From Balanoglossus misakiensis (taxonomy: Eukaryota > Animalia > Hemichordata): a DNA stretch of 64,000 nt. The notes beneath the pieces were generated by a model. The model saw only the letters and a program-made list of their open reading frames with translations, made no database searches and was not told where the DNA came from. A program made the position numbers and the translations under genes. This document shows, piece after piece, positions 17,677 through 63,415 of this stretch. The stretch lies in assembly GCA_040954595.2 (NCBI GenBank), contig CM082584.2:3317344-3381343 (forward strand). Direction: 5' to 3'. Position 1 is the stretch's first letter; every line of letters begins with the position of its first letter.

Positions 17677-17725
17677 TTAAGGCAGACCTATGGAAAGCCA
17701 TAACTGCCTTAAGTGAACTGAACTC

Positions 17726-19190
17726 ATGTTCTCTTGTGTATTTAACATGTTGTCTTGTACATTTAATATGTTGTCTTGTGTATTTAACATGTTTTCTTGT
17801 GCATTTAACATGTTTTCTTGTGCATTTAACATGTTGTCTTGTGCATTTCATATATGGTCCTGCGCATTTAACATGTTGTCTTGTGCATTTTATATTGTCT
17901 TGTCCATTTAACATGTTGTCTTGTGCATTCATATACGCTGTCTTGTACATTTAACATGTTGTCCTGTGCATTTCTATATGTTGTCTTGTCCATTCATATA
18001 CGTTGTCTTGTGCATTTCTATATGTTGTCTTGTGTATTTCTATATGTTGTCGTGTGACTTTATTATGTTGTCCTGTTCATTTTTATATGTTGTCTTGTCC
18101 ATTTATATACGTTGTCTTGTGTATTTCTATATGTTGTCTTGTGCATTTCTATATGTTGTCGTGTGACTTTATTATGTTGTCCTGTTCATTTCTATATGTT
18201 GTCTTGTCCATTTATATACGTTGTCTTGTGCATTTCTATATGTTGTCTTGTGCATTTCTATATGTTGTCGTGTGACTTTAATATGTTGTCCTGTTCATTT
18301 CTATATGTTGTCTTGTCCATTCATATATGTTGTGGTGTGACTTTAACATGTTTTCCTGTGCATTTCTATATGTTGTCTTGTTTATTTATATACGTTGTCT
18401 TGTGCATTTCTATATGTTGTCTTGTCCATTCATATATGTTGTGGTGTGCCTTTAATATGTTGTCCTGTTCATTTCTATATGTTGTCTTGTTTATTTATAT
18501 ACGTTGTCTTGTGCATTTCTATATGTTGTCTTGTCCATTCATATATGTTGTGGTGTGACTTTAACATGTTGTCCTGTTCATTTCTATATGTTGTCTTGTC
18601 CATTTATATACGTTGTCTTGTGCATTTCTATATGTTGTCTTGTCCATTTCTATATGTTGTCTTGTGCATTTCTATATGTTGTCGTGTGACTTTAATATGT
18701 TGTCCTGTTCATTTCTATATGTTGTCTTGTTTATTTATATACGTTGTCTTGTGCATTTCTATATGTTGTCTTGTCCATTCATATATGTTGTGGTGTGCCT
18801 TTAACATGTTGTCCTGTTCATTTCTATATGTTGTCTTGTCCATTCATATACGTTGTCTTGTCCATTCATATACATTGTCTTGTACATTTCTATATGTTGT
18901 GGTGTGCCTTTAACATGTTGTCTTGTTCATTTCTATATGTTGTCTTGTCCATTCATATATGTTGTGGTGTGCCTTTAACATGTTGTCCTGTTCATTTCTA
19001 TATGTTGTCTTGTCCATTCATATACGTTGTCTTGTCCATTCATATACATTGTCTTGTACATTTCTATATGTTTTTGTGTGCCTTTAACATGTTTTCCTGT
19101 GCATTTCTATATGTTGTCTTGTCCATTTATATACGTTGTCTTGTGCATTTCTATATGTTGTCTTGTCCATTCATATACGTTGTCTTGTGC
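17726..19190. repeat. Subterminal minisatellite of copy A, ~21-22-bp unit (catttctatatgttgtcttgtg), ~109-bp higher-order period
   Basis: Directly visible; repeat-derived ORFs recur at 109-bp spacing (18003/18112; 18395/18504/18613). Confidence 0.95.
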
Positions 19191-19303: not shown

Positions 19304-20662
19304 ATGGCATCTATGAGAGACATTCTAGAAAGTCTACAAATGGGGAATCTCAGTGACAACTTTGAGAGTGAAAAGGTAACACCAGAATTAGTGTGTAAAC
19401 TTTCTGTGCCAGAACTGGAGGAGCTTGGTCTTCAAAACAGGGCAGACATGATGGCATTACGTATTGCGTGCACCACAAGTGGAGGGGAAACTCCAACAAA
19501 AGCCCATGGATTATATGGTGGTGCTCCAGAATTTGTCATTCCCAAATGCATCTTAGAACATTTTTTTGATGAAGGATTCACAGTTACTGAAGTGGCATCT
19601 ATGGTATCTGTTTCGGAGCGTACTATTTACCGCAGAATGATGCATTATGGGCTGAGTAAGATGAATTTCTCTGATATCTCTGATGGTGACCTGGATGATA
19701 ATGTACAGCAACTGACAGTGGAATTCCCTTATTGTGGTGAAAATATGATCAAGTATATGTTGCAAGAAAAGGGAATTAAAGTCCAACGGATGAGGCTCCG
19801 TGATAGTATCCACAGGGTAGATGCTGAGGGTGTTAATTCCAGAAGAAAAGGTCGTTTACAAAGACGTGTCTACAATGTGAAGGGACCAAATCACTTATGG
19901 CATATTGATACCAACCATAAGTTAATTAGATGGCATTTTGTGATATTTGGGGGCATTGATGGCTTCAGTAGACTACCTGTCATCCTATCCTGCAGCAACA
20001 ACAATAAGGCACCCACATTGCTGGAATACTTCAAGTCCAGTGTTGAGAATTTTGGTCTTCCCAGTCGTGTAAGGTCTGACATGGGTCGTGAAAATATACT
20101 GATAGCTGAGTATATGATTGAGAGACGGGGACCCAACAGGGGAAGCATGATTACAGGCAAAAGTGTGCATAATCAGAGGATTGAGCGATTATGGAAAGAT
20201 GTGTATGAAGGTGTTCTGAGCCTTTACTACCAACTATTTTACTTCATGGAAGAAAGAGGTGTACTTGACCCACTGAATGTACTGCACATTGCAGCTCTTC
20301 ACTATGTGTTCATGCCTAAAATAAATGAAAAGTTAGAAATCTGGAGGAAAGCTTGGGCTCGACATCGTATGCGTACAACAAAGACATCACCTCTGCGTTT
20401 GTGGATATCTGGACAGATGAATGATCCAGTTGGTATTGATGACTCTGACATTGGTTTGTATGGAGTAGAGGGTGTCATCAATGATGATTCAGAGGAGACA
20501 GACTCGCGACCAATCATCGAGCCACCATCATTTCAAATGGGTCAACAGTGTATGGATGCACTATCTCAGCACATATTACCAAACTGGACATCAGACAACT
20601 ATGGCATTGACATTAATAATATAGCAGTTCAAATCATACAGGACAATGCTGATCAAAATTAG
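19304..20662 (+). CDS. DDE transposase (IS3/IS481-like integrase core) with N-terminal SAM-like domain and HTH, 452 aa
   Basis: Intact [26 protein letters not shown] and HNQRIERLW give a D..D34E triad. [25 protein letters not shown] pattern [37 protein letters not shown]. Confidence 0.93.
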
Positions 20663-22074: not shown

Positions 22075-25000
22075 TCAAACATTACCAAAAAACCTATTGG
22101 AAAAAGCTAAATCATACAATGCAAACAATTGTGCTGCCGATGGTACTGGATGTGCAGCTGTTGGTCTCGGCAATGATAATAAATTTATACATGTGTTTGC
22201 AGTCGGCAAAAACGACTGCTGCACGGGAACAAATGTTATTGCCGGACTTATGCAGAAACCGAGCACTGGCTCTTCTTCAGCCCCTGTCACAAACTGGAGG
22301 ATATCAGTAAGAGTGACAGATCCTCTTCTCCCACCTGAAACAGATTAAAGACAAGAGTAAAAAAACTCACCAAAATAAATAATCGGTCTCTACCATTTAT
22401 TCATTTTGGGCAAATTTTTACTCTCATATCATACAAGCGGAATGGAAGGTGTGGTTAAGGTTGAACGTTGATTCACTATATATCCACATGTACATTAACA
22501 TAAACGGTATCTTGTATCAAACATAATAAATAGGAAAAGGACCGGGAGAGAGACTATTGTCCCTTTAATGATTATGATTGGGGATAGGATACATATGATA
22601 CACAGCTAAAGATTGACAGACCTGCACCAGGTTTGTCACATGCATACATCATACCTGACAGGACAGGTCTGCTGCAGGTCTGAGAGGACATACATGGTGC
22701 AGGTCTAACAGGTCTGACCCGCACCAGGTCTGATCCAGCAGACTGCTGCAGGTTTGCGTCCATATCGCTGCACATGACCTGTTGGTCAGACATGCACCAG
22801 ACCTGGTAAAATTTAGTTGTGTTGTACCCATGGAATGTTAATTTTCAAAAGCAGTTTCTGTATACATATAATTCAAACTGTCACTAAAGTGCAAAAGACA
22901 GGTGGCAATGAATTGATTAGGGTGCAGTACAAGTAATTGAGATATCTGGCTCAAATTTGTCACAATGCAAGCTGTCGTATTGCTCTTTTAAATTAAGTGT
23001 GTCTCTGAATTTCTTGGAAGATTTTGTCATAAAAATAATTTTAGAAGGTTTAAATATCCAAGACAACCTTTGGAAAATCATGAGTAAAGCTTGTACTCAC
23101 ACAAATTTGTGGCATTGCAACACAACATAGGCAAAAACTTACTTTTGAAGCATTATGCAAATTACCTTTCATGTGATAGTCATGTAAACAATGGTGACAG
23201 TCTGGTAACCACAATTTCTTAGCAAATATATAATTTATGGGGGTTCTGAGCTCATTAACCATTAAGGAATTGTTAGATTAAAAATGTCAATACATGTACT
23301 TGAGTTTTGAGATTCTCGCAAGACATACGAAAACGAGTCTGAGGGTGAGCATGTACTGTGCACACAGACCGAGATTACACGTTCGGTGACTGATAAGTTT
23401 ATTAATATCCATACACTTTCTCGTTCCATGACGCCCGTGGTCGAATTAGCTGCTTTCACTATCACTCTGACAGCGAACAACCCGCCATGTGTTGTTGACC
23501 CTCAGCCTTGTTTTGAACTATTCTCACGCCTTGTTCGAGAATCTCGTTCCGGATCTCAAGAACAGAGTATTCCTTGTACTGCACCCAATCCTAACGATGC
23601 CAAGTCAGTTGAAAGGGGTTTGATTTCCAGTGTGCGTAGAATTCTGGCACCCAGGCCTGTTAGGCTGCCAAATTTGCAAAATTTAATCTTGGATATGCAG
23701 GAAACACAACACAACACATCCATATACAATCAAAATGTTCAACTTACTTGCGACTTCACGTAGGTATTTGATAAATACTGCATACACTTCACCCTCAAAG
23801 CGTCTGTTATTAGAACCTGCATCTGCGAACTCCGGTACCAGTAGGGATTTGATTTTATTCATCGTCAATGTACTGGCTGTATTTTGTTGGAATAGGTATT
23901 GAAACACAGGTAGGTCCAAACATAACTGGTAATGCAAAGAAAACCAATGATGACATAGTCCTTGCTGCTTCAATGTTGTTAAAATCTTTGGTACTCCATT
24001 ATTATTATTATTGAAAAATAATGATGACTTTGTACATAACAATTGTACACAGATCATCACAGATCGAATGCCATTAACAAATAATTTCATACCAAGTTTA
24101 GATGACAATAATCTAAGAATTGGCATTGCAGTACAACTGAATTGTGACACATTTAGTCATTTGTTTTCTGAAGTAACATTTGGAAATATTGCAATGTGCA
24201 TCAGAGCAAATTACTAGGGTATTACTGATAGATATGGCAGAGGAAATCTTCCTGTTTCAGTGGACCTACCTGATATATCCCTAAAGTGCTCAATCCATCC
24301 TTCAGCTTCATGATACATAATGGTATCTCTTCACCTTCAGAACCTTTAAACAACCATCGTAGTACATCTTCACTCAAAAACTGAGCTAGCTTTCCGTTCT
24401 GTATCATACTTAGAGCTGTAAGAAAAACTTATTATCATTACTCGTTTTATCTTTAAAGAAAGAATTACAGGAGTTTTACCATACCATCCACTTGTCAGCA
24501 TAATTCTAATCTGCTCCTTGCAGTCATATATTTCTGTGAATATGGAAAGGCTTTTATTTTTAGACTTGAGGTGTTCGGCACCCCGAAATCGCTGACTTCT
24601 GAACATTTAATCTTGGGAATAAAAATTGGAGGTCAACCTGCTAGATTTTTGGAAAAAGCACCCTCTATCTAGCACCTCTTTAAAGGGACAAAGTCTCTCT
24701 CTCGCTGCCCTTTTTCCATTACCTTTAAGTTTTTGCTAGTCTTTGTAGATCTTTGTGAAACGGCTTCACAAAGAAGTTTTTTTGGAAGGTCATCATATTT
24801 TTTACCATTATAGAATCTAATCTAAATGAATGTTTTATTTTTAGTAATTTTGAGATTTCATCTTGTTCAGTATGATAATCACATATCAATACAACTACGG
24901 TATTAAATTAAACACAGATTTGCCTAAAAATCTACTTTTATGTAATTTTTTACCATTTCTAGATAAACTTTTTTAAACCTGGTAGATCCTTGTTTGAAAT

Positions 25001-28000
25001 ATATCAAATCAATTTAAGGGGGGAAAATGGTGGGTCACCGCGCAAATTGTTGAGACACAGGAAGTACGTTAAACATGGCTTTCGGGCTGTAATCTGATTG
25101 TCCTGACCACAACATGAGGTTCAACGGGGAGCTTCTATGGGAGTTGGTCAGATGTAGTGTGAGGCAACAGCATAAGAATACTGTACTGCAAAGCAAAAGA
25201 TGTTGCCTTACCCTACATCTGATTTGAATCAGATTGGGTGATCACATGACCGAGGTAACAAGGTCATGTGCCAAATCAATCCCCATATTCGGTCTATATC
25301 TTTATTACATGCCTTCCCGACAATATATATTCATGATAACTTGTATTTACAAGTAAAAAAATAAATTATAAATGTCATTTTCGTGATATCAAGAGGGAAA
25401 ACAACAATTTTATCAAAACACTAAGCTTTAAAGTGTATGAATTATTATTTAATTGAAAGTGAAGTGGATCCCTGGGTGTTTCAGTTTCTGTACCGATCAA
25501 CCATCATACATGAATAATCTGGTGCAGTTTTTGGAAAATATTGCTATTTCATCATTTGCAACGTACGATGTTGTATGGATTGAATTTTAATGTGTTCAGA
25601 AATAAATTATTGTAAAAGCAAAAGTGAATCACTTTTTTCGTTTGGTTTCATATCGATAACAGTTCCAGGTCATCTTGTCGGCCAGTGGTGATTTTGCAGC
25701 CCGCTACGTCATGAAACGTTTGATATACGAGGCATTGTAATAAAGTTAGCATTTGACATGTACTTGTCAGGAACTGATTCTCTACCATTGAAAACACACT
25801 TGGCCATGATGAGGCTATAAAATCTTACCTATAATTATTCCTACTGTGGTGTAGTCCTCATGAAGGTGCTCTTTTAAGGTGTCGAAATATTTTTCTTTCA
25901 TTTCTCTCATAATCAATGCGAAGAATTCTTTTCTTGGTCCTCCATAATCCTTTGCTTGCTAATGAACACAGAGAAAAATAGTGTGAAATTGTTATATAAA
26001 GACATGAAGCATATGCTCAAAACATGACAAAGTTACTCATCCTGTGACCAGTTTGAGTTTTCTGCAAATAAAGAGATAGTTTGGAGCACTGCACATGCAC
26101 CATCCAAGCGAACGGGAAGTAGCATTTTTCTCAGGTTACACATCCAATATAGGGTATTTTCAGCTCTCGTACATGGCTAAATAGAGTGTCATTTTTGGTC
26201 AAGTTCATAACCAAATGCAGCCAAGATGTTCAGTCAATGTCATGGCTGCCGGCGAGCATGAAAAGTTCAGAATCCCCGAAAATTTGGGCCTAACCATTCT
26301 GCAGTCATCTCTGGTTTCTGCAATGTTACTCCAGAATATTTATGATTTCAGTTGGCTGTATTCAAATCTATTGTACAGTGTCTTTTAGAGGATCCATTTT
26401 TCCTTCATATAAATATTAAATATTCTCATTGAACAATTAGTTGACAAAATGCCAGCATTGTATATAATTGCACAATGGGGGACAATGTGGACGCTCGTTC
26501 TATGCATCACACATGGTGCTAGTAGGTGGGTAGCAGGTAGGAGGAAGTTTCGTTAGAAGAGATTAATCACATCACTTCTGGGGTCAATTTAAAATAGGTA
26601 AAAGAGTTAAGGTTCAAAGACAAGTAATTGATCCTCTTAATCTAAAAATTTTGTTGCTTAATAAGCTCAGAAGTCAGAACCTCATCAAAAGCCTACCACG
26701 GACATGCAATTTGCATAACCTTTAATAAATCAATTTGCCCAATGGTTTGTTTTAATGCTTTGAGGTATCACGCTCAAATTTGCGAGAAAGCAAGCTGTCA
26801 CAATGCTTTTTCCAAAGTGTGTCTCATATTTTTTATATCTTGGTTATTTTAGTGTTAAATGATCTTAAAGTTTGTTAATCATAACATTTGTTTTAGAAGA
26901 TTAAAAAAAATCTGAGACACACTTCAGTCAAGCATTATGACAACTTGTAACCACAACAATTTCAGGCACATTTAGTTGTTGTTGCAATAATATGCAAATT
27001 ACTTGTCATGTGACAGCTATGTAAACAATGGTGATTCAGTGGAATCAAAGATAAGCCCAAAGCTAGTTTTCTCCACTTCTATCCCTGATAAATTGATACA
27101 TATATGTTGCTAAATTTCATAAATACAAGAAATCCTACATTGTACTTTCATTGAACACATCACTCTGAAATATCCAACAAAGTCAGACTTACCTCTCCAT
27201 AAAAATCAACTTCCAAAGTTGTACACAGCTCCTTCACAGATAATGTTGTTATCTCATCAAATCCAGTTTGGAGAACTGACAACCTGTCAACAGTTATGGA
27301 AGTGGTTCTACCCTCAACATGCTGACTTGTGGACTTCAACTCTAATGGTCTGCCTGTCATTACTACTGACTGGTAAAATCGCAGAATTTCAACTGGATTT
27401 GTGACTGCATTCTCCTTGCAATATTTCACGGTTCTCTGTACAGCATTATTTACCCATAACATGCCATCTTCAATCTCTGGTTCACTATCAATACCATCTC
27501 CAATTCCAAATATACTGCCTGAATTATCTTCATTATTCCTGGTCTGAAAGTAAACAAATCATTGTAATGAGTTTAATGACACATGACAAATATAAAGTAT
27601 TTAAACGTTCCCCTTTTCAGGTAGGCCTAAATCCTGTCATGTTCTGATTACAGGACGTATCATAGGTGTTAAAGCAAATACTAGTACATGAATAAATTAT
27701 CCAAATATAAGGTTCAACCATATACAAGTTCTCTTGTTGGTGGGACCATAGCAGACTTATGTCACAATTACGAACACAATTGAGCATATTAATTTAAATA
27801 ATAACACATGTTATAATATACACCATGCTAATACTGTGTCGTGATTTGCCAGAATCCGTCACGTGATAGGAAAAGAGTATCAACTATGAATCCCTAGGTA
27901 AATAGCAGAAAAAATATAAACCGGTCACGTGACCAACGTGAGTGAGGTTTATTATAAAACACCTATGGCCTGACGTCCGTGAAGTTGGCCTCATCCTCAG

Positions 28001-30140
28001 CTTGAAAAGTCACGCGAATATGAGGATGAGGATGAGGCCAACTTCACGAATGCTGGGCCTGGGCTATATTCGGGCCATTGCAGCCGTTTTTACCCCCTAG
28101 TGACTGTGAGTTACCATTTTTTTAAATTATTATTATTATCATTATTTAAACGGTGTTTTCTCCAGGATGTTGAGAGAAGGGGGGAATGTCCCCTCTTAGT
28201 CCAAAATTATTGGGGGATTTGGTCAAAGTAGGGGGGAATCATGATTTGCATAATTTATGTTAATTAGGTAAATTTCAAGGAATAACAATTTTGAACGTTA
28301 TCTTACTAACTGCCTTCATTCCAGCAACTTATGAAGTGCTGGGCTTGCCAGCGTAGGTAGTAGGTACTGTGCAATCTTGTGTGACCTGAGCTACGTAGTG
28401 ATAGCGAGACAGAATTACAACATTTTACATGTTAACATGTGACATCTAAACAGTTACAGATTTTTACTACTTTAAATTTGTAGATTTTGCAGAGGAAGAC
28501 ACCAGCTTGCATAACTTTCAGGGCATGTAATTTTAAAAAGGCCGGAGAGCTGAAAATAACCCCTGAAATTATTTACACAAGTGGTAGGAGAGTGACTAAC
28601 TGCTCCCCTGGCAAGGAGAGTGAAATGAATAAAATAAATGCAACTGGAAAAACAAGTGTCTTTCTTTAAAACTATACCTGGGAAAAAATTTCTTGTTTGA
28701 TTTTAAAAGTTTCAGTTTTTTTAGCTGTCAAAATATTATATTGTGAAACTATTAATAGTGAAATAAATTGAAGTGGTATATTCCTTCAGATTTCTGCCTA
28801 CACTTCCCCATCTGTGGCTAGGCACACTACTCAAATAAATAGTCACTGTACATATTGAATGACTTTCCTTCCAAAGTAAGAAAACAGGTCTTGGAAAACT
28901 GATACATTCTTGATAATCGCCATGGCATGAATGCAGTTCTTTTAATTTGCATAAAATTGTTACATTCTGCCAACCCAATTTCAAATGTCTCCATAACAAC
29001 AAGATCACTTGAGTGTGTGCTCTAAACTTAGACAGTGTCCAGACAGAGCTCTTTGGCTGTTCCAACAATTGCACACTATAGCCCTTGGAGCTAAATTACA
29101 CGTAATTGAATGTGAAAGTCATTTACAACATAGTATTTGGGGGTGGGAAGTTAAAATGTATAGGCCAGCACGCAGTAATATCGGCCGTTTTCCCAGTGTT
29201 TTGACTGACAGTGCATGCTACGAGGCTTGGACGCGCATGTACTGGCCGGGTGGGCTGCTCAAGAAGGGGCGATTGTCGCCCCCTGAACTTGTTACAAGGG
29301 GCGCTTCAAGTGGGGGGAATCGCGCAATCGCGCGTCCCGGAGAAAACACCAGAATCATACCCCTCAGCAATTTCGATCCCCGTTAGAAACAGAACAAGAT
29401 GATTAAAACTTACATGATCCTGTTCAGCATTTTCAGTCAGATCAACAACCATATTGTTCGGAATTTCTTGCGGTGTATCTCGATGTTCAATAGGTCCGAG
29501 AGGAAGCTCTGGGTCTTCATCCGACTCCGATTGAAGAACTGGCAAACACCAGTCGATATGACTGCGTAATTTGTCAATCGTGAACTCTGTGTTGCAACCT
29601 CGGCACTTTTCTTTCAGACTCGTCCCATGGCTGGTTTGTTCTGTTTCTGTGACGTTCAGATTTTTTTGAATAGGGCGCAAGTATAATTTGGCTTGAGAGC
29701 CGACATGGCGCTTTAGCTCCTCGACGCTCCAAGAACATGTTATCGTTTGCAAATTTCGGCAGTTGCCAGTGCAATGCATGATTTCGAAACCTCCGCATTC
29801 ACTTAATTGTGGATATTCCGCCTTGATTTTGTTGGCAACATCTTCCTCATCATCGTGGCAGAAAAAAATCATCTTACGTTCCCCAAGTCCCGCCTTGTTA
29901 AGAACTAGCTTTTCAGCAACTGTTGGAATTCTCTGTTGAAGGCGATCAGCCACACACAAGACACGGACTGTCCATGTCCGGGCCTTTTTGGCGGTTTTCT
30001 TATCTCGACCGACAGTACCAGACGGGGCACCAGCCCGCCCACGCCCACCATTGCCTCTGGCGGGGATAAATAACATGTCTCTTTCAGAGCGTACGGTCTC
30101 AGAGAGTCTTCCATAGTTGCTAGAAGATGCAGATGCTATA
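22075..30140 (-). CDS. Transposon-borne HECT E3-ligase-like gene (G2E3-like), copy A; 5' end (SAM domain) deleted
   Basis: Exons ~30140-29414, 27543-27193, 25958-25829, 24415-24270, 23925-23748 and 22334-22075. Motifs LEVDFYGE-QAKDYGGPRKEFF, ILQFVTGAEE, FLPTANTCINLLSLP (catalytic Cys), C-terminal FFGNV*. UBZ-like CRGC-x11-HIDWC. Confidence 0.85.
22601..22821. mobile_element. Small CACTA/EnSpm-like MITE
   Basis: CACAGCTAAA...TTTAGTTGTG ends with many internal CAGACCTG/CAGGTCTG motifs in both orientations. Confidence 0.55.
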
Positions 30141-38650: not shown

Positions 38651-38701
38651 TACTGAAGCGAAAATCAAAAATCAAAAACGACAAAGAAAAAAGAGAAGCT
38701 A

Positions 38702-43371: not shown

Positions 43372-44027
43372 TTAGTTGTTTATCATTGTATCCTCGATCC
43401 AGGTGATCACATTTGGCACGTATCCGTACAGACCCGGTTTGTTGGGCACGGCGCAACCGTGGGTGACACGGTCTCCAATGACACCGACCAGGTAATATCT
43501 GTCTTCAGATGCCATGTAGTACATCATGGGGCCACCATCGTCTCCCTGGATTAAGAGAGATTAATTTTTCTGTTACAAACTTTCAGAATGGGGGGCGACG
43601 CAGTATCTCTGTATCTCGCGAACTTCCATTTCATAAGCATGGCAAAAATCGGCCATCTTGAAATTGTGTCCACCATACGAGATTTTAATGACTCACCTAG
43701 GTACTAAACCCTATTTAATATAGGTAGTGCCTAGATAGTTTATTTCATCAGGCTAGGGGATCAAATTACAACAATGTTTTGAGCGTGGCGTGGACACGAG
43801 CAATGTGAGCTTTCAAATGCGGGGGTCACGATTTACTTACATTGCAGACATCTTCCCCTCCGGTGCCTTCGCCACAAATCAAGCTGGGAGTCACATCACC
43901 ATTCCAACGCGATGGGTCGTTGCAGTAATCTCTGTCGTAGATGACAATGCTTTGTTGCAGAAGAACTGGACTACCTGTATCCAAAGAGAATTGATTACCC
44001 ATTGAGAAAAAAAATTACTGAAACTTG

Positions 44028-44065
<38 letters not shown>

Positions 44066-51100: not shown

Positions 51101-53462
51101 GCACTCACAAAATGAATTATAAAATTCAATTACCATCATTTCTCACTGACAGACACATGACAACAGACATTCGGAAAAAAAATTGCATATCAAAGTTGTA
51201 TCAAACTTATTAAAAAAGACTGGGGTATTACAGTAGTGTAATAGTAAGGCCAGAGAGAATAAAAATCTTGTTCATCGTATTTTTTGGACCAAGTTCCAGG
51301 AGCGGTGAGCGAATATTTTTATTTTATTTTTTTTAAGGCTTAAGGTAAATGCGGTTCTCTGGCATATTTGCACAGATGCAGACAAGGTGAGAAATTGGTT
51401 CCCTTTTTACCAGAAATATCTCAGACAAAAACACTGATACATGTACTTGTAACTGAATTCAATACAATAGTTCCCAACAATAACATAGGCCATTACATTT
51501 ACAGTTGGTGTTTGCACAACATATTCTGGCCACCAGCGCCAGTTATAAGAATTTTCTAACGCGGAAGAAGAATTTTCCGAGATCCAAAAAAAAAAAATTT
51601 TCCAAATCAGCCAAAGTAGAAGCGGCGATTCCGATGAACAATTTATTTTTTCTTCCTGGCCTAAGAGCTTTATTTTGAACAAACAACACAGTTGTTTTCA
51701 AAAAGCACTGTAACAGTACTGCTGGGCGAGTCATGTTACAGCACTGTACTAGCAGCGCTGTAACATGACTGTCAAGGCATACATGGAACATTCCTGATAC
51801 AGCAGTGTTCCTAGCATGGTACATTGCAACACCAGAGTTGCAACATAAGTGAAACACACATGTCAAAACAGACATGAAACATTGATGTGGCATGACTGTT
51901 TCATGTCTGTTATGTTACATTGCTGTGGACTTTTAGCTTGACAAGAATCCTATTCATTTAATATGGGTGGTTAGCGAAGACGAAGTATGAACACTCCGTC
52001 ATCCTGAAGAATGCCAATGCGTCTTGTAGTTCGTTTCTTAACGATAACAGTGGTGCAGTGGGAGTTAGGGGGAGGGGGTCTTTCCTCATGTCTGGCTATG
52101 ACTATACGTGCACTTTTTCGTGGCATAGGTATAAGACACGACATGAAATGACAACTAATCGTCTGTAGCAAATTAGTTTTATCAACCTGGTTGGTCATTC
52201 AAACCAGGAAATGAAAGTCTTGTGTCAAAAAAATGCTTGATGTGTATCTGATCAAAATCTGTTCCCAATTTTTAACATTTTAATTCACGTCAGATTCCAA
52301 TGTCCTCATCGCATGAACCAAAATTCTGCTCAAATCCTATAACGGCATTTTGATATTTTAGAAGATGACAGTAATTGCGGCGCGACTGTTGTGTGGAGTG
52401 GATATCACATATACATGGAGTAATTTCTCTAAAGGAATGAGAGATCAGTCTTAAAGTTTGTTCTCACGAAATACAGCATGGCCTGTCCCGCTGCCACAGA
52501 ATGCTAGGAGTCATTGGTGCCGTCTTCGAGCAGCAAATTTAAAAAATAGCGTCAAGGACACTGTGGTCCCATCTGAGGATTACGCAGAAATAAGGATACA
52601 CCAGAATAAAAATTACAGGTGACATTGCGAGCAGATATGATCTTACCATATAGAAATATGGGATGTAAAAAAATTAACAAGGAACATGCCCAATAAACTG
52701 TCATGTGTCATGGCATACTTACAAGTGGTGCTAGAACAAAAAATGTTTTGACCAAAAATTGTCTGTACAAACACAAATGACAAGCAACTTCTTTCAGTCA
52801 GTCCTGGAACAGACAGACAGACACACACACTGACCTGCAACTTGTAATTAAAAATTTAATAGCTGGTGGTCTCTGGAACAGCTGGCCTATTAAAGTTATG
52901 TAAACATGTCTAAGTTGGGGGTAACAACTCCTTGTCAACAGTAACTTTCAAAACAACTGGACAATTGGTTTAGGAGAAGATTTGCTAACCAAAAACAAAG
53001 AAACTTACAAAGAAAACTCGCTAAATATTGAATATTTCTGATATCAGAATTGAATAGAAATTGTATCCTAAATTTCAAAGCAATCAGAGAAAAAACTAAT
53101 TTCAAAGCAATCCAACAAGCAGTTTCACAGAAAATATTTGTTCAAAAGTGGCAAAAACACAAATATCACCAAAATTGTACAATATCTTACTTCAAGCACA
53201 TACAGACATACATCCATCCATCCATCCATACATACATACATACAGACGCAACCGATCCCGTAAGGTCCCATGGTATAAACCAATGGGACCTAAAAAAACT
53301 TGATTAGAAAATTTTGTGAAAAACCTATGTCAGTGCCTTTGGAATGATAACCATCCCAGTCGAGGTTAGGATGACGTCACATTACATGGCCGCTAGGCTG
53401 ATTTCGTTACCTTGCCCGTGGGCTCCCGCCAACAGTGTTGTAACGGCGATCAGAAACAGCAT
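43372..53462 (-). CDS. Secreted trypsin-fold serine protease homolog (catalytically inactive), ~275 aa, 6 exons
   Basis: Exons 53462-53411 (signal peptide MLFLIAVTTLLAGAHG), 46050-45947, 45596-45508, 44551-44277, 43974-43841 and 43545-43372; all GT-AG, phases match, 828 nt open. Motifs VGGYEAVPGSWPWM, HKCGATIV..WVLTAATC, DYNFALLK, ICLP, CNGDDGGP, CAVPNKPGLY. Confidence 0.92.
50192..50253. mobile_element. Tiny Tc1/mariner-type MITE
   Basis: TA|CCGTAATCG ... CGATTACGG|TA. Confidence 0.55.
50942..51012. mobile_element. Tiny piggyBac-type MITE
   Basis: TTAA|CCCTTTC ... GAAAGGG|TTAA. Confidence 0.65.
51248..51661. mobile_element. Harbinger/Zator-type MITE (TAA TSD)
   Basis: TAA|GGCCAG..AATAAA..TTGTTCATCG ... 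CGATGAACAA..TTTATT..CTGGCC|TAA. Confidence 0.65.
52552..53293 (+). mobile_element. DINE/HINE-like element (second family)
   Basis: Head caaggacactgtggtcccat (also at ~21793); (CATC/CATA)n microsatellite; 3' hairpin ggtcccatgg...ccaatgggacc (also at ~46699-46725). Confidence 0.6.
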
Positions 53463-53649
53463 GGTCCTCCTTCAAGAAACTCGCTTCACAGAATACAGGG
53501 TGCGGTGGAACGAGTTCCGTATTCTACACCCAGGTTAGTCAACAAAGTCTGTGAACATTCAGAAATACCGTCACCTGTGGCCGTCGGTGATGTATTGTAT
53601 AGCGTTGATCGCTATGGAAAGCCACAGCTGTCTTAAGTCCATTGTTACC

Positions 53650-54480
53650 ATTATACGACGCTCATACATCTTTATACAATGTGCATTCATCATTATACGA
53701 TGCTCATACATCATTATACGCTGTTCGTACATCATTATACGACACTCGTACATCATTATACAATGTGCATATATCATTATACGATGGGCATACAACATTA
53801 TATGCTGGTCGTACATCTTTATACAACGCTCATACATGATTATACGCTGCTTGTACATCATTATACGACACTCGTACATCATTATACAATGTGCATATAT
53901 CATTATATGCTGGTCGTACATCATTATACGACGCTCATACATCATTATACGCTGCTCGTACATCATTATACAACACTCGTACATCATTATACAACGCTCG
54001 TACATCATTATACAATGTGCATATATCATTATACGATGTGCATACAACATTATATGCTGGTCGTACATCTTTATACAATGTGCATACAACATTATACGCT
54101 GGTCGTACTTCATTATACAATGCTCATACATCACTATACAATGTGCGATCAGTATACGCTGTGCATACATCATAAAATGACGCTCATACATCATTATACA
54201 ATGTACATACATCATTATACACTGCCCATACATCATTATACGCTGTGCATACAACATTATACGCTGGTCGTACATCATTATACGACGCTCATACATCATT
54301 ATACAATGTGCATACGCCATCATACGCTGTGCATACATCATTATACGTCGCTTATTCACCATGATACTATGTGCATACATCATTATGCGCTGTGCATACA
54401 TTTTTATACGACGCTCATACATCATTATACAATGTTCATACAACATTATATGCTGGTCGTACATCATTATATGCTGATCA
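53650..54480. repeat. Left subterminal 21-bp minisatellite of copy B (catacatcattatacgacgct-like)
   Basis: Directly visible; contiguous with the TIR. Confidence 0.95.
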
Positions 54481-54659
54481 TGCACCATGATATGATGCTT
54501 GTTCATTACATTACAGCAGAGACACCTTTATTGCAGGCTGTTTGTTAACTGGTTCCTAACAGTGTATTTACGATAGAGGGCATGTACTCTGATCAGCTGT
54601 TTCTATCGGCCATTTTGGATGTCAAGTATTTGATTTGTAAGTCTTCACAATTTGGCAAA

Positions 54660-56024
54660 ATGGCATTGTCTCCTATGTCCACCATACTGCAGCGACTGAA
54701 TTTGAGCAACCTTACTGGAGTGTTTGAAAGGGAGAGGATCACTCCAGATATTGTTGGTAAGCTATCCAGCTGGGAAATGGAGTCCCTTGGAGTGGTTAAT
54801 CCTGGAGACAGAATGGCTTTGAGCGTGACTTGTACCACCTATGGGATGCAAGTTCCACCTAAGGTTTGGGAAAGTGGGGGTGCACCACAGTTCATCATTC
54901 CAAAAGATATCCTGGAGAACCATTTAGATGAGGATTTTAGCATCTCTGAAATAGCATCAATGATAGGAGTTTCAGAAAGTACCATTTACAGAAGAATGCG
55001 ACAATATGGTCTTAGCAAGATGGACTTCACAGATATATCTGAAAGTAATCTAGATTCATATGTCATTGAATTGGCACGAGAGTTCCCATACTGTGGAGAG
55101 AGAATGCTAACTCACATTTTGAAGAATAGAGCAGGCATTAAAGTCCAGCGGATGCGCCTCCGTGACAGTCTTCACAGAATTGACTCAGATGGTGTAGATG
55201 CAAGACGAAGGGGTCGTTTACATCGCAGAATATACAATGTTAAAGGACCAAATCACTTGTGGCACATTGACACAAACCACAAGTTGATTAGGTGGCATTT
55301 TGTGGTAATTGGCGGTATTGATGGTTTTAGCCGTCTGCCAGTCATGCTTCAATGTCGGGACAACAACAAGTCAGCTACTCTGTTACAGTGTTTCAAAAGT
55401 GCTGTAGGCGAATATGGCGTTCCAAGTAGGGTGCGCTCCGATCAGGGCATGGAGAATGTTGGCATAGCGGACTACATGATATTAAGCCGTGGGCCTAATA
55501 GGGGAAGCATGATCACAGGGAAAAGCGTACACAATCAAAGAATTGAGAGGCTGTGGAAAGATGTTTTTGAAGGTGTTCTTGCGTTATATTACCAGTTATT
55601 TTATTTTATGGAGGAGAAGGGTATTTTAGATATACTGAAGCCAAGCCATATAGCTGCACTTCACCATGTGTATTTATCTAGAATAAATCATAAATTAGAA
55701 ATATGGAATAACGCATGGGCCAATCACAGAATGAGGACGACAAGAACATCACCTCTGCGCTTATGGGTTTCCGGTCAGTTGCAGAACCCAGTTGGGATTG
55801 AGTTAGCTGCTGATGAAGTCACAGAATATGGCGTTACTGGCGTGATTCGTGAGGATGCTGATGAAGCAGATTCGAGACCTGTGATCGATGCACCATCATT
55901 TGAGTTAAATGAAGCCTGTACGGAAGAACTATATCGCACCATTCCACAAACATGGACATCCAATAACTATGGTATTGAGAGGTACCTAGATGCACTATCC
56001 ATAATTAATCATCACCATGATTAA
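54660..56024 (+). CDS. DDE transposase with N-terminal SAM-like domain and HTH, copy B
   Basis: Intact ORF (open from 54582; ATG 54660 aligns with the copy A start). [28 protein letters not shown] pattern [46 protein letters not shown]. Confidence 0.93.
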
Positions 56025-56569
56025 TTCTGTTCGTTCTAGACTTAGAGCGGCAATAGCTGTGATTTTGAACATTTTTTGGCACTAATAACACAGGAAATGT
56101 TTTATTAAAAATAAAAATCAGAGAAAACAGATCGATAGTTCAGTACAATTATTGCTGCTTTAACATATGGAGCACTTAGAAAACAAACAGATACAATGTA
56201 TCATTTGACAATGCATGTTTATTCAAAGAAAACATACACAACTTCTCGACAACAATGAGTTTTACTAGCCAAATCCTCAAGGTCAAAACGAAATGACAAC
56301 AACACCGGCGCCGCCGATAACACCAAGTCACATGAATGAAAAAAACAGCTGATCACTGGAAAGCAGGTCACTGCAGCGCAGATGCTCTATGGACTGCAAT
56401 ATTACTCTGAAGGGCCATCCATGAAACAGTAATTGTTAACGTTTGTCAGTTGGAACTTGTAACTTATACATGTAGTATAAAGCAACTAAACATATACCCC
56501 CAGTACTCAAATGGTTGCCATATTATGTATCCAATGCATAGAAGGAAATCAAACCATACAGGCACCATG

Positions 56570-59500
56570 TCATACTCTACCAAAATGTCTAGTGGTAAAT
56601 GCATAATCATACATCTCATGCATCCTATCTACTGACAATAGGTCATGCTCAAGAGTGGGTCTCGGTAGCTTCAATAAATTGATGCAAGTATCTGACGTTG
56701 GAATAAAAGATATTTCATATGGAATAAATTCAATACTTGGTGCAGTTCCAAACCCTAACACTGGTTCTTGCTCTAAACCATGAAAGTTATATTTTAACCC
56801 ATTGATATAGCCAAGACATTACTTACTTGCAACTTCACGAAGATATTTGTTGAATACTGCATATACTTGGCCTTCATATCTTCTATCATTAGAACCATTC
56901 TCACTGAACGATGGTGTTAGCATTGCCTTTAGCCTTGGCAAAGTGAGTTTTGAGGATGTATTTTCACGCAGAAGATGCTGGAATGTAGGCAGCTCTATAC
57001 ACATCTGTATTAAGTAATATATAGTGTGTAATATATGTGTATTAATACACTTCTCTTTTAGACACACAAAAAACATGACAATGGAAGCAAACCATATACA
57101 ATGTAATAAAGTTCATGTTTATGTTCTCAGTCTGACAATAATATAGAGAGACTTCAATATGAACACTGATTACAATCACCCCACAAAAGCACTAGAGATT
57201 GTATTTAGTACTCCCATTGTGATATACATGTATTGTGACAGTATACTACTACCGGTAGTAGTGTTGTTTAAAATTCCAGTACTATAATGTTTTTTTAATG
57301 AATTCTGACCAAGACATGAATGGAAAAGTTGGCTAAGTAATATCAGATACATGTAGATAAGGTATGCAATACCTCAGTTTGTAGTTTCAACACTTTGTTA
57401 AAAGGTGATTTTTGACCGTGTATGAAGTGAGTTATTTACATCTGTCCTATATCTTATATGGACCAAACCAAAATTTTACCAAAATACAAGAAATTATGGT
57501 GGAAATCAGTTTATGAATAAGCCAATTACTACCAGTTAAAATGCATGGACTGATGCTAAAAAGTGATTGTTCTATACATTACATATGTTAACAGTGTACA
57601 TGTTCATAGAATCCTACCCTATATTTATTAAACTATGAAACTATTCAATTCTATTTAATATCCAAATTACCCTAATTAAAATAAACCAATGTGCATAAAA
57701 AATAATCAAATCTTGTATTTGTTGCATTTGTCTTTTTTTATATTCTAAGCAAGATTTTCGTACTGACAGACATCCATGACATAAGACATGGTGGCTATTA
57801 ACCACTAAAGCTGTTATAACTCAATAATCTATAAATAGTTGTTTAAACTCACCTTATGTATCCCTAATTTGTTTAGGCCTTCCTTTAATTTCTCCAGACA
57901 TGGATTTAATGACACTAAGCCTGTAGAGAACAGCTCTGATAAGACATCGGCACCTAGGAATTGAGGCAATACTCCATTCTGCAATATGCTCACAGCTATA
58001 AGAATCAATAATTTAAGTTACATTTTGAAGAGCTCCTGTGTGAGTTGCGAGAAGTTCTGTCTAACGAGTCATATAACATGAACCCATGTGTATGTCTTGA
58101 TTGCCATTCGTGAACTAATTTAACATGCAATTTGTCCACACAATACTCGTAGATAAGCATTAGTCATGCATATTCCATGTTTGAATGGGTTTTGGCATTG
58201 GCATGAATCAACTTCGAACCAAAGAAAGTTTAGAAAGAACTCCCGTGTTCTGAGGGAATCGCAATAGTAAAAGCAATTTGATCCACAGTATTAAAATTTA
58301 CAATACAAACAGAAAACCCTACATAACCCCTACATGTGCATAATCCCAGAATACCAATAAGTATACCAGCTAACAGCTGAAAAATTGGCTAATTTAGGTT
58401 TGTCTTATTGAAATTTCTAGAGCTATCAGTGGAGCAGCTAATAAATTGCAATTTATTATGCAAATTAGATAATTAATATGCACTGGTGTCAACCAAAAAG
58501 TATAATCAGATCTTCGCATTTTCCAAATGCATCTGTGTATCAAGTTTCATTGGAATCTGTTGAACGGTGCATGAGATATCAATGGAACAGCTAAGAATTG
58601 GCTAAGAATGGCTGGCATGTCATAACAGCAGAAGTAAAAAAGGATGTCCATATGAACATGCCAGAACAAAAAATATCTTACCTAAGATCTGACCAACAGT
58701 CACGTAATCATCACAGAGGTGGTCTTTTAAGCCATTGTCAAAATATTTCTCTTTCAATATCCTTAACATTGAATTCAAAAATTCTTTACGTGGACCGCCA
58801 TAGTCCTTTGCTCTCTGTGTGAAATTAATAATATAAATATTGATGTTAGTATATGGTAATAGATTAATCATTTTAAGGCAATAAAAATCCATTCAAACAA
58901 ATGTTTTTCTTTATTTCAAATTACCTCTCCATAAAAGTCTACTTCAAGCGTTGTTCGTAGTTGCTGTATAGACAAGGCAGACATTTCATCAAAACCAGTT
59001 GATGAAAGGCACAGTCTGTCAACGCTAATCACAGTTGTATCGCCTTCGTCACACTGATCCATTGCTTTGATTTCCAGAGCTCTACCAATGATCATTTTAG
59101 CTTGATAGTACCGGAGAATCTCCACAGGGTTTTCTATACTATGCTCCTTACAGTAATCAACAGTTTCTATAACAATAGCTTCCACTTTCCTCTTTTCTGC
59201 ATCATCTCCCACTTCATCTTCTTCATCGACCACCTACAATGGGCAAAACAAGATTAATAATTTAACATAAGTTAGGAAATGTCTATATACCATATTTGGT
59301 CCAACAAAGATCAATAATGATATACAATCTGTCAATGTATATAAAAATGACTGCCCATATATTTTCCTTCTTTTAAACTGGACTGATTAGGGAGTTTGTG
59401 TACATTTTCTGTACCTTTTTGGCAGACATCCGTGCATATTAATTTTCACCTAAAATTGCTTTTTTGAGACCACAAAAATATGTAATATTAAATTAAAATA

Positions 59501-62434
59501 TGTAAAAAACAACATTTTCAACTTGATTTTTTTACAATTTACCAGTTAGTGGCCCAAAAAAAGGAAACTCACAGGAAAACAAATAATTAAACACTTACAA
59601 AATTGTCTCGCTCCATTTCCACATTTATATCAGAATTGGTCTGATTTTCATCAGATACAGCAGTAGCTGTAATATAATCATTCCTGAAAGAAAGAAGATG
59701 GTCCTCTTTTCAGTGTCATATTCTCTATGTTATTATTATATTATATGTAGAAACGTCCATAAGATTATATGTCACAGAAACAGACGACTAGAACTTGGGT
59801 GCTTCCATTGTGGCAAGAATTTTAAAAGAAATTCATTTGTGCCCACATATACAGATCTGATGGTTTATATGTTAAAAGTTAAAACGGTGTAATCTAATAT
59901 TGGATGAATATCCTGACTGTACATAGCGTATTTACCCTATTAGTAACGCATGCTCTTTCGAAATGGCAGAGGTTTGTTTATGGTCAAAACAAGTCTTGTT
60001 TTAATAAGTCAGTATACAATAAATGCCACTGTTGGCTTACATGTACTTGGATTTTAGATGCGCTTCTAACGGAGCAAATACGGCATACTTAAAGGGAGTA
60101 GATCGTCACATACGCATGGATTCACTGTAGCCTCTGGTTACGGCAGGTAAACATTCAATCCCATAATTCCGTACGAATATCAAACTCTATAAAATGGCCA
60201 CCAAACTACTCGCTAAAACTAGTAAAAGCCTTACTTGGGTATTCTTACACTGTTTGGAATGAAAAATAACTAAATATGACCACCATTCAAATTCCGAATT
60301 TGCAGCACAAATTTCAGTGAGAGAAGCCTGTGTACCGCACGATGTATTCACACACCAATCGCCATTACCAAGCACACCTGATTCATACGGGACAACGAAG
60401 CGCCCCAAAACGCCTCACAACTTGTACAATGGCCCCTTTTTGAACTTTATGCGAGGAAGACGCAGCCATCTTGAATCTCGCTCACACACTAGCTATACAG
60501 TGCATTATGGGTAAAAATCATGTTTATCAACAAAGGATAAAAATAGGAAAATCTACCCCCCTTCAACCTATTTAATTTTACTGTACTACACACTATATTT
60601 TAGACTACACTAACAAATGAGTATAATCCCAGTTATAATGCAAAAAGTTAGTTCAGTGAATTAGCATGAACTGAAATTGCTCAGGTGTTGCAATGATATT
60701 GCACCATCTGGACAATGTTGATTGTCATTATATTTACAACTGTTCTTGTATTTACATTTTCTGATGGAATAAATTTCATTCATCATATGCAAATTAAATG
60801 GCAACATAACCAAATCAAATAAGATTATGTATTTTATTATGATGCCATGGGAACATGCACAGAAAGTGAAAGGCCAGAAACTGGCTCAAGTCAGCAGGTC
60901 ACAGGAATTTGAAATTGTTGTTGTTGAAAGAAATATACAGGCCAAAACAAAATTATGCTGGAGGTTCCTGACTTCTGCCTGACTTCAGGAGCATAGCTGT
61001 ATCAATGTGCCAAATGTAATTGAAAATGGTATTAATACTTACACATGTACCGGTACATGATCAGCAACCTCACTCATAGATTCAACAGCTGCCTATAAAA
61101 TGAAATAATATTGGAAGTAAGCTACATATCATAAACTATGTATGTACAGTGTATTATCACAAGCACCAAAACTGACCAAAATGTTCACCAAAAACTAGAT
61201 GCTAGCATATACATGCATGTATCCCCCAACCCATTGCTCATTTGCATATATCAGAATATGAATCCAGAGCAGATGCTTTTGGGTAAATATTGGTAAATAC
61301 TGACTTACAAAGACAACATTAATTCTAACATGTTGGTTATGTTCATCCCTACAATACAAACATGAATGAACACAACAAAATAGTTTGAGAGAATGAGTTG
61401 TTTTCACCAAAAATACACGAGTATTCCAAATTTTCTTTTCTCATTGCTCACAGTTGCAATTTCTTTCTTGATGATAACGAGTTATCAATCGTTTTTTCAC
61501 AAAATGTTCATAGTCCCCCCCCCTCCACCCACCCAGATTTTCAAATTAGAAAAAAACATACATAAATAAATATTAAATAATTTCTAAAATACTGTTATAT
61601 GTTCACACTTACCCCTACATCTTCATCTGAATCAGATAAACATTTACATGTCCACATGTGATCACGTAATTCCCGTACATCAATAAGTTGATTGCACCCC
61701 TGGCACTTTTCTGTAACACTTGACGAAATTCCAATGGATGATATTGGCTTTGTTGACAGGTTTCGTTGTATAGGCCTCAAATAAATCTTAGACTGTGAGC
61801 CTAAATTAGCCTTCAGATCAGGTATTGACCAGTCACAGCTTATTACAGACAGATTACGTGAGTTAGGTTGACACTGCAGTAGTTCAAATCCACCGGCATC
61901 TTTCAATTGAGAATATCCAGCCATATCATTGTCATCATCTTTCGCAGATGACAAGGTATCCAAGAACTCCCCCTGAGAACACGAAGCATCAAATTTGATC
62001 TTTTTTGGCCCTAACCCAGCACGATGTAAAACTTGACGTTCGGCAGATGTTGGAACTTTAAAGGCATGCCTGTCCGACAAACAAACAAAATTTCCTGTCC
62101 ATGTACGCTTCGGTTGATTGACCGTGCCACTCCGGCGCGTGCCTGTCCTAGGTCTACATCCCCTTGGTGCCATTCTCGGGTTAAAAAGCACACTTCTTTC
62201 TTCTCGAACAGCGCTGGCCATACTGTCATTCCTGGTAGTAGACTCACCGGTTCCGATCGTACTTGTAGCCGTTTTACACAGGTCACGGATGCGAACGCGA
62301 TCCCCCAATGTTGAAACTCCCAGTCTAGTTAATTCACCATCAGTCATGGAAAGAACCGTTGAAGGATCCACTCGTTCGTCTAGGAAACGCTGTAAGAGCG
62401 CTGGAAGTTCGAGCTTAGTCAAGATACTTTCCAT
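56570..62434 (-). CDS. Transposon-borne SAM - beta-grasp-like - UBZ-like - HECT E3-ligase-like gene, copy B
   Basis: Exons 62434-61613, (possible small linker exons), 59233-58925, 58814-58682, 57995-57853, 57004-56827 and ~56773-56570. SAM: ILTKLELPALLQRFLDERVDPSTVLSMTDGELTRLGVSTLGDRVRI. Also GGFELL...IYLRPIQ, CQGC-x11-HMWTC, DYGGPRKEF and IPTSDTCINLLKLP. Confidence 0.85.
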
Positions 62435-62599
62435 TCTGACTGGGTCAAACACTCAGATCACAAACAAATATGGCGCATGTTACGTATTTAAGTATGTTGC
62501 GCCCTCTTTGACAGAATTGCGGTTAGGCATAGCATATCATAATGACATGTCCGCATAGTATAAAGCCAAACGCGCGCCGTATGTTGAACGGGCATAGTA

Positions 62600-63192
62600 T
62601 CATGGTGAATGAGCGACGTATAATGATGTATGCACAGCGTATAATGATGTATGCACACTGTATAAAGATGTATGAGCGTCGTATAATGATGTATGGGCAA
62701 TGTATAATGACGTATTCACAGCGTATAATGATGTATGCACATTGTATAAAGGTGTATGAGCGTCGTATAATGATGTATGGGCAATGTATAATGATGTATG
62801 CACAGCGTATAATGATGTATGCACATTGTATAAAGGTGTATGAGCGTCGTATAATGATGTATGGGCAATGTATAATGATGTATTCACAGCGTATAATGAT
62901 GTATGCACATTGTATAAAGGTGTATGAGCGTCGTATAATGATGTATGGGCAATGTATAATGATGTATTCACAGCGTATAATGATGTATGCACATTGTATA
63001 AAGGTGTATGAGCGTCGTATAATGATGTATGGGCAATGTATAATGATGTATTCACAGCGTATAATGATGTATGCACATTGTATAAAGGTGTATGAGCGTC
63101 GTATAATGATGTATGGGCAATGTATAATGATGTATGCACATTGTATAAATATGTATGAGCTTCGTATAATGATGTATAAGCGTCGTATAATG
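62600..63192. repeat. Right subterminal 21-bp minisatellite of copy B with 84-bp (4x21) higher-order repeat, inverted relative to the left array
   Basis: Unit starts at 62761, 62845 and 62929 are 84 bp apart. Confidence 0.95.
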
Positions 63193-63415
63193 GTAACAAT
63201 GGACTTAAGACAGCCGTGGCTTTCCATAGATCGCGATTACTTGTTTGTTACTATATTTAGAAATCCCTAGTGCGCATGTCTGGCGCCATCTTGAAATTCG
63301 GAGAAACAAATCGGACAGCCATTGACACCGCGCAGTGTACCGTGTACCGTCGCCCCGGCTGGGTAAAATCTACCGTCGTTTTTTGCCCCTAAATTGCTTG
63401 TTTTTTTTAGTTACA

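Follow-up and report, generated by a model that had tools for sequence, protein, structure and literature searches.

Do a transposase and a ubiquitin ligase that begin with the same kind of domain use it to bind each other? The question is raised by a 64,000 nt window of contig CM082584.2 of the hemichordate Balanoglossus misakiensis, the whole stretch of DNA analysed here, which contains two copies (A and B) of a transposase gene with an E3 ligase-like gene on the opposite strand. An initial annotation had noted a shared N-terminal pattern in both transposases and in the E3 of copy B, had read it as a sterile alpha motif (SAM) domain, and had proposed that the E3 is recruited to, or caps, a transposase polymer through a SAM code private to each family. 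The three open reading frames are present at the starts it gave (19304, 54660 and 62434).

Element B is a complete DNA transposon of the IS3EU/GingerRoot type, 9.6 kb in length (53613..63228, + strand). Its termini are TATGG..CCATA, and its terminal inverted repeats (TIRs) are identical at 57 of 60 bases; the ends of the known type are TA..TA, or TAYGG..CCRTA, with TIRs. A 6 bp target-site duplication, GATCGC, again as in IS3EU/GingerRoot, flanks it on both sides (53607..53612 on the left, identical to 63229..63234 on the right). Subterminal arrays of a 21 bp unit lie at the left (53649..54499, + strand, about 41 copies) and right (62597..63192, − strand, about 27 copies) and are inverted relative to each other. 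A SAM-HTH-DDE transposase gene and a convergent SAM-ubiquitin-like-zinc-finger-HECT gene are both inside this one element, bounded by the TIRs and the target-site duplication. Element B is, in short, a two-gene IS3EU-type cut-and-paste transposon, both proteins of which start with a SAM domain.

Transposase B is encoded by a single exon (54660..56024, + strand) and consists of SAM, HTH and an integrase-type DD34E core (Pfam rva_4, E = 4.6e-77, plus HTH matches). No integrase zinc-finger family is among the Pfam matches listed, leaving an integrase-type DDE protein that lacks an HHCC domain, as is typical of IS3EU/GingerRoot; an N-terminal HTH and a convergent second gene are also shared with that group. 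The core resembles, by eye only, that of IS3EU-1_CVi given in one supplement passage. The catalytic triad is nearly invariant among 110 aligned transposase sequences (D204 and D261 in all, E296 in 109). Transposase A (19304..20662, + strand) is 62% identical to transposase B and also has an N-terminal SAM. Fungal members of IS3EU/GingerRoot carry an alpha-kinase gene opposite the transposase, whereas the second gene of element B is of the HECT type. By word look-up, HECT goes unmentioned in the main texts of three papers on IS3EU/GingerRoot and in one supplement, although Repbase entries or Kojima's review may already name such a gene. Among the titles and abstract openings listed by searches of the open literature, none describes a transposase-HECT/SAM pair. 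IS3EU is widespread in animals, and a passage of PMC11934779 calls its structure and function largely unexplored.

The exon structure of the ligase genes is predicted splicing from a sequence model. Exon 1 of E3 B (61613..62434, − strand) encodes, in the AlphaFold model, the SAM, a helix, a ubiquitin-like (beta-grasp) domain and a C2HC zinc finger. The ubiquitin-like assignment is a weak one, drawn from low-scoring Foldseek matches to SAP18, RA domains, USP7 UBLs and RAWUL, and the Pfam zinc-finger matches are below cut-off. The HECT N-lobe exons (56827..59233, − strand; 59233-58925, 58814-58682, 57995-57853 and 57004-56827) have GT-AG ends and an open frame, with introns at the same positions as in copy A. 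A candidate 85 nt exon at 59683-59599 was dropped because it breaks the frame. The last exon (56570..56772, − strand) carries the catalytic-Cys motif PTSDTC and starts 19 codons further downstream than is usual in the family. Immediately before it, a 54 nt remnant (56773..56826, − strand) replaces the last intron and the part of the exon coding for the conserved GRR..VTL..LQF.TG segment, so that 19 conserved C-lobe residues are absent and the motif spacing is 176, compared with 192–195 in the family. The missing 19 codons were not found elsewhere in the window, and contigs of runs X1 and X2 depart from the window sequence at 56774, carrying extra letters. Judged from its sequence, the ligase of copy B is probably defective.

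The C-lobe is complete in copy A. Element A has a left end (TATGGAAAGCC) with a 22 bp subterminal array (17689..19190, + strand), and no matching right end occurs within the window. Its E3 gene (22075..30135, − strand) comprises six exons with an open frame, an intact C-lobe and the motif PTANTC. It begins at a phase-1 acceptor, downstream of the SAM position, and a SAM profile search found no SAM exon for it anywhere in the window.

The HECT domain is C-terminal and shares with the HECT E3 ligases AREL1 and E6AP the N-lobe motif GGP..EFF and the C-lobe motifs LQF.TG and P.A.TC. The catalytic-Cys motif, which reads PTSDTC in B and PTANTC in both A and its relatives, is present in 12 of the 15 listed proteins with HECT sequence, and the remaining three stop before the C-lobe. 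G2E3 is among the structural neighbours, and the SAM-UBL-zinc-finger N-terminus is absent from the human HECT architectures tabulated in PMC6457168. The N-lobe is about 90 residues shorter than those of AREL1 and E6AP (83–93 between GGP..EFF and LQF.TG). From its position, judged by eye, this shortening may remove the E2-binding small subdomain described in a section of PMC3077247. The HECT-type protein is somewhat likely to have ligase activity; a HECT able to function with no E2-binding subdomain of the usual kind would be interesting by itself.

The N-termini of the transposases and the E3 are SAM domains, as the initial annotation had supposed, although the pattern it wrote down fits the E3 only and has to be relaxed at two positions to fit all three. 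Taken singly, the window sequences fall below the Pfam SAM_1 cut-off of 23 bits (transposase A 12.6; transposase B 17.9, rising to 22.2 when its domain is taken alone; E3 B 21.2), while the relatives P0028 and P0066 exceed it, and SAM_1 matches were obtained for 11 of 12 transposase N-termini. The best PDB match of the transposase N-terminal profile is the tankyrase-1 SAM (E = 1.8e-6), and the E3 profile matches the BICC1 and ANKS6 SAMs at about 1e-9. AlphaFold predicts the five-helix bundle of a SAM in both transposase B (mean pLDDT 86.5) and E3 B (pLDDT 97–98 across residues 1–50), and the best Foldseek matches of both models are SAMs, with probability 1.0 but E-values of merely 0.002–0.05. 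Across the full set of 2776 six-frame segments from the window, SAM profiles recovered these three alone, the next best having E = 0.15.

Part of the apparent likeness between the two kinds of SAM is misleading. The helix-5 motif (G/A)D(R/M) reads GDR in one transposase of 110, which is transposase B itself; gene conversion was considered as its source and rejected, there being no DNA likeness by eye. Transposase and ligase SAMs fall in separate clades (support 0.98). On a possible origin of both SAMs by duplication the profile scores are mixed: with the transposase profile, 50 of 63 ligase SAMs outscore the best PDB SAM, but with the ligase profile the transposase SAMs score a median of 36 bits, below BICC1 and ANKS6 (41).

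What the two classes do with their surfaces is more informative. Contact residues of tankyrase-2, as given in passages of PMC4980433, were transferred gap-free via the profile match to tankyrase; the mapping is an ungapped extension, the match itself ending at the start of helix 5. The two sets compared (110 transposase and 63 ligase SAMs) were gathered with window-derived queries, and both share ancestry. Transposase SAMs (54675..54845, + strand, in transposase B) conserve the mid-loop face and not the end-helix: Asp25 (D902) is found in 105/110 and position 26 (V903) is hydrophobic in 107/110, while Gly44 (G921) occurs in only 3/110. Ligase SAMs (62270..62434, − strand, in E3 B) conserve the end-helix face and vary in the mid-loop, with Gly44 in 63/63, the hydrophobic knob at 43 (Y920) in 62/63 and Asp25 in only 12/63. 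Scored as whole faces, the mid-loop is kept in 105/110 transposases and 12/63 ligases, and the end-helix knob plus Gly in 0/110 and 62/63. Both faces on one domain, as in a polymerising SAM of the tankyrase type, occur in 0/110 transposase and 12/63 ligase SAMs. The pattern persists after thinning to 60% identity (transposases versus ligases: Asp25, 44/47 versus 10/42; Gly44, 2/47 versus 42/42), and over the 16 named contact positions the entropy contrast gives p = 0.008 when compared with random positions and p = 0.033 when labels are shuffled. The tankyrase pair E906-K928 appears charge-swapped, with K/R at transposase position 29 in 66/110 and D/E at ligase position 51 in 35/63. By conservation, the two classes thus show complementary faces, as would be expected of a heterodimeric SAM pair. 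A glycine in the end-helix is found in many SAMs, so its conservation in the ligases is weak evidence alone. Two of seven end-helix positions (47 and 55) are more conserved in transposases than in ligases, and the transposase helix 5 carries an invariant face of its own (M47, R50, C53), perhaps for contact with a different partner or for homodimer formation.

Reciprocal conservation of the faces favours a one-way heterodimer over a transposase polymer. That the transposase SAM polymerises head to tail, with the ligase capping or joining the polymer and each family using its own code, is very unlikely. The nearest solved relatives, tankyrase and BICC1, do polymerise, the long tandem subterminal arrays could accommodate many transposases, and transposase B has PGDR. 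The transposase SAM is closest to the tankyrase SAM in sequence and fold and retains the mid-loop contact residues, yet tankyrase needs an end-helix Tyr-Gly to polymerise (PMC4980433), which the transposases replace, mostly with Arg-Ser; a polymer is thus not expected, and this part of the earlier proposal is not supported. Nor is the family-specific code. Positions 29/51 read K/D, K/E and L/K in three candidate pairs (two presumed), a hint of covariation in a very small sample of cognate pairs, of which one is certain, one degenerate and two presumed. Against it, the SAM of transposase B ranks only 18th of 110 in identity to the SAM of its own ligase. Near-constancy of the contact residues between corals and molluscs also speaks against a code for each family. 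Any SAM contact is likely to be common to the whole SAM-bearing lineage.

That the transposase recruits the ligase, the remaining part of the initial annotation, survives as a prediction: SAM-SAM recruitment accounts most simply for the complementary conservation, and we regard it as fairly probable that the transposase SAM binds the ligase SAM. Near-invariant surfaces in corals, molluscs and hemichordates would equally fit a conserved host partner. The transposase mid-loop, which is similar to that of tankyrase, might guide insertion by docking on a host end-helix, for example one in a SAM polymer of chromatin, and the end-helix of the ligase might capture a host SAM protein for ubiquitination as a counter-defence; one-faced SAMs are known to cap the polymers of other proteins, as with Mae/Yan in a section of PMC9499636. 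This requires two separate partners where one internal contact suffices, and the apparent 29/51 charge swap pairs the two element proteins with each other. We consider host partners rather unlikely.

The gene pair recurs in relatives, in keeping with the paired reading. Of 40 metagenome loci, most of them short contigs, 10 have pieces of a convergent HECT gene downstream of the transposase: C-terminal HECT exons at L002, L003, L004, L006, L009, L033, L035 and L036, and the ligase SAM at L016 and L034. The transposase SAM is restricted to one lineage, with no SAM match at L014, L022-L025, L028 and L032. L035 and L036, which belong to a degenerate lineage further removed, have the same gene pair with a SAM detected on neither gene. 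E3 A sits in an 18-member clade without a SAM in the same reading frame; transposase A nonetheless retains its mid-loop, which counts against the pairing. The SAM-less pairs at L035 and L036, the separate clades of the two SAM classes, the invariant helix-5 face and the shortened HECT N-lobe would suit independent SAMs, that of the transposase being a helix-5 dimerisation or structural module and that of an accessory HECT protein, perhaps a scaffold and not an active ligase, serving its own oligomerisation. Such independence is distinctly unlikely, as it leaves unexplained why no other SAM surface of the transposases is as conserved as the mid-loop and why the mid-loop is lost in ligases, and the catalytic Cys is retained.

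The best explanation as a whole, to which we assign a probability of roughly 0.55, is a SAM-paired transposase and HECT ligase acting on the transposase complex. The mid-loop face of the transposase would dock one-to-one on the end-helix face of the ligase, the contact would hold the ligase on the transposase at the element ends, and the tethered ligase would ubiquitinate the transposase complex, leading to its turnover or disassembly. That this complex is the substrate is a tentative step, and somewhat doubtful. If the explanation is true, many genes annotated as uncharacterised HECT/SAM in molluscs, corals and hemichordates would be working transposon parts, and two residues would provide a handle on the ubiquitin regulation, or dismantling, of a eukaryotic transpososome.

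The proposed pairing has precedents among SAM proteins. According to passages of PMC9499636, the SAM of Mae has a mid-loop only and is unable to polymerise, and in Mae-Yan and Mae-Pointed-P2, as in the element pair, one partner offers the mid-loop and the other the end-helix. ANKS3-ANKS6 and EphA2-SHIP2, which appear among the fold matches, are likewise one-way SAM heterodimers. Unlike in these pairs, both halves are here encoded by one mobile element, the binding being predicted from conservation. Two-component DNA transposons include PIF/Harbinger, with a transposase plus a Myb-like protein, and RAG1L/RAG2L; as in these, the second protein encoded by the element is predicted to bind the transposase. 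Transpososomes require active disassembly, and that of MuA is remodelled by ClpX. In contrast to all three systems, a ubiquitin-ligase-like enzyme, predicted to dock through a SAM, fills the partner's role in element B. More speculatively, and with greater doubt than attaches to the choice of substrate, an animal transposon lineage may have split one SAM polymer interface between two proteins, its transposase recruiting a stripped-down HECT ligase, possibly without the E2-binding subdomain, for ubiquitin-driven disassembly or destruction of the transpososome. This would be a eukaryotic parallel to ClpX acting on MuA, encoded by the element itself.

The window comes from an animal genome and contains spliceosomal introns as well as two related DNA transposons, elements A and B. 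Element B is a single transposon (53613–63228, termini TATGG..CCATA) within which the SAM finding falls entirely. Its terminal repeats are identical at 57 of 60 bases, it is flanked on both sides by a GATCGC target duplication, and mutually inverted arrays of a 21 bp unit lie just inside its ends (53649–54499 and 62597–63192). These end, duplication and array features are those described for IS3EU/GingerRoot transposons in PMC10045372 and PMC12730594. Element A starts at 17689, and its right end is absent from the window. Its array (17726–19190) is built from a 22 bp unit, and the long subterminal arrays of the two elements are unlike each other.

Both elements carry one single-exon transposase gene (at 19304 in A and 54660 in B), encoding a SAM domain, HTH and rva_4 core (Pfam), and a second, multi-exon gene on the minus strand, convergent with the transposase. 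The exon models of these second genes, the ligases E3 A and E3 B, have intron positions in common, and the C-terminus of the product resembles HECT. The predicted fold of E3 B exon 1 runs from a SAM through a helix and a beta-grasp-like domain to a C2HC zinc finger (AlphaFold, Foldseek), the beta-grasp matches being weak (Foldseek E about 0.02–0.06). Full-length relatives that combine SAM and HECT in a single chain are recorded in scallop, mussel, other bivalves and one hemichordate, and convergent pieces of a HECT gene were found in 10 of 40 metagenome loci retrieved with the transposase, the majority of the remaining loci being short. In two related loci with internal deletions, L016 (298–2766) and L034 (1341–1551), the transposase is followed immediately by the ligase SAM exon, which is encoded on the other strand. 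More distant IS3EU-like transposases (L035, L036 at 8100–13000, L014, L022–L025, L028 and L032) gave no SAM match. L035 and L036, although degenerate, retain a convergent HECT gene with a longer N-lobe, so the pairing of transposase and HECT gene may be older than the SAMs.

The initial annotation took the N-termini to be SAM domains, and this was borne out by profile matches to tankyrase, BICC1 and ANKS6, by five-helix models and by SAM fold matches. A SAM was matched in 119 of the 122 transposases examined (the best 120 of 1624 matches, plus A and B), a share that is not a superfamily-wide frequency because the query itself contained the SAM; 110 complete domains were retained. Among ligase relatives, 71 of 154 had a SAM match; 9 partial domains were removed, and the other 62 with E3 B gave a set of 63. 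The proposed shared helix-5 motif, (G/A)D(R/M), was drawn from transposase B, the sole GDR among the 110, the usual form being ADM, as in its sister A. Transposase B also departs from the near-invariant helix 5 (54798–54830, plus strand) at Arg46 (1 of 110) and at Ser50, where 108 of 110 have Arg; these changes may reflect a partly regained end-helix face, or decay.

Tankyrase-2 contact residues, those named in PMC4980433, were transferred by profile alignment, extended ungapped into helix 5. Transposase SAMs keep the mid-loop face (Asp25 in 105/110, a hydrophobic residue at 26 in 107/110) and have lost the end-helix face (Gly44 and hydrophobic 43 in 3/110 each). Ligase SAMs are the opposite, with Gly44 in 63/63, hydrophobic 43 in 62/63 and Asp25 in only 12/63. 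The pattern persists after thinning to 60% identity, and across 16 named contact positions the contrast gave p = 0.008 and p = 0.033 in two shuffles, in the expected direction at all nine mid-loop and five of seven end-helix positions. The charges of the tankyrase E906–K928 pair seem to be swapped between transposase and ligase. Mae is described in a review (PMC9499636) as a SAM with a mid-loop face only, making polymer extension impossible. A transposase SAM of this kind likewise could not extend a polymer, and the likely unit, judged from sequence, is a heterodimer of transposase mid-loop on ligase end-helix. That both SAMs instead bind host SAM proteins is unlikely, and that the two act independently somewhat more so. 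The least probable reading is the one proposed initially, a transposase polymer with a private family code: the hydrophobic knob and Gly44 occur together in 0/110 transposase SAMs, and core contacts are nearly constant across the sampled elements, so a code is probably not set per family and non-cognate pairs should cross-bind. When the 110 transposase SAMs are ranked by likeness to the SAM of E3 B, that of its own transposase, B, comes only 18th. Specificity could be adjusted at positions 29 and 51; of the cognate pairs available, only one was certain, one more was degenerate and two were presumed. Specificity more likely resides in the subterminal arrays, as candidate family-specific transposase binding sites, than in the SAMs.

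Under the heterodimer reading, the transposase HTH would most likely bind the subterminal arrays and ends, and the SAM of each subunit would hold a single ligase. The ligase would then ubiquitinate the transposase complex, helped by its ubiquitin-like domain and by the zinc finger, which we take to resemble ubiquitin-binding UBZ fingers, and the transposase would thereby be limited or dismantled.

E3 B is without 19 C-lobe residues which copy A has, as do 5/5 aligned annotated relatives and loci L002, L004, L006 and L009. Contigs of two runs from one sample diverge from the window sequence at 56774, with extra letters there, so the lesion is likely peculiar to this one copy or to the assembly. 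The HECT of E3 A is intact, and the gene model starts at an acceptor just past the SAM position; E3 A clusters (support 0.93) with 17 relatives that are also without an in-frame SAM, several of which show, by eye, acceptor-like sequence at the same point. An upstream exon is therefore likely, but a SAM profile search of the window found none for E3 A. A multi-exon, DYRK/HIPK-like (by eye) protein kinase gene (30241–35760, plus strand; one exon matches Pfam Pkinase at E = 1.6e-16) lies head-to-head with E3 A at a distance of 105 bp; its first visible exon begins after the Gly-rich loop. Both genes are without a 5′ exon and element A is without its right end, which is most simply read as a deletion junction; a contig of run X1 stops at 30137. 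Elsewhere in the window are a retrotransposon-like integrase zinc-finger fragment (3606–4837, plus strand), an FAD-dependent oxidoreductase ORF (8594–9295, minus strand), a trypsin-like protease exon (43400–47300, minus strand) and several families of short interspersed repeats (13200–15420, 21430–24730, 38700–39550, 46110–46740 and 52540–53300), some within E3 A introns.

In the literature on the known superfamily, searched without reaching Repbase or one review, neither the HECT gene nor the paired SAMs were found described; new from this window are the reciprocal way in which the SAM faces are divided, the arguments against a polymer and a code, and a short HECT. The last is seen in E3 B (56570–59233), in E3 A (22075–27543) and in ligase relatives P0028, P0049 and P0291, with about 90 residues fewer in the N-lobe. 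The E2-binding small subdomain is part of the HECT N-lobe, according to PMC3077247, and from their position the missing residues are possibly this subdomain. Compared with AREL1 or E6AP, the family HECT is 83–93 residues shorter between anchor motifs, the difference lying in the N-lobe, whereas the catalytic Cys is retained wherever the C-lobe is present.
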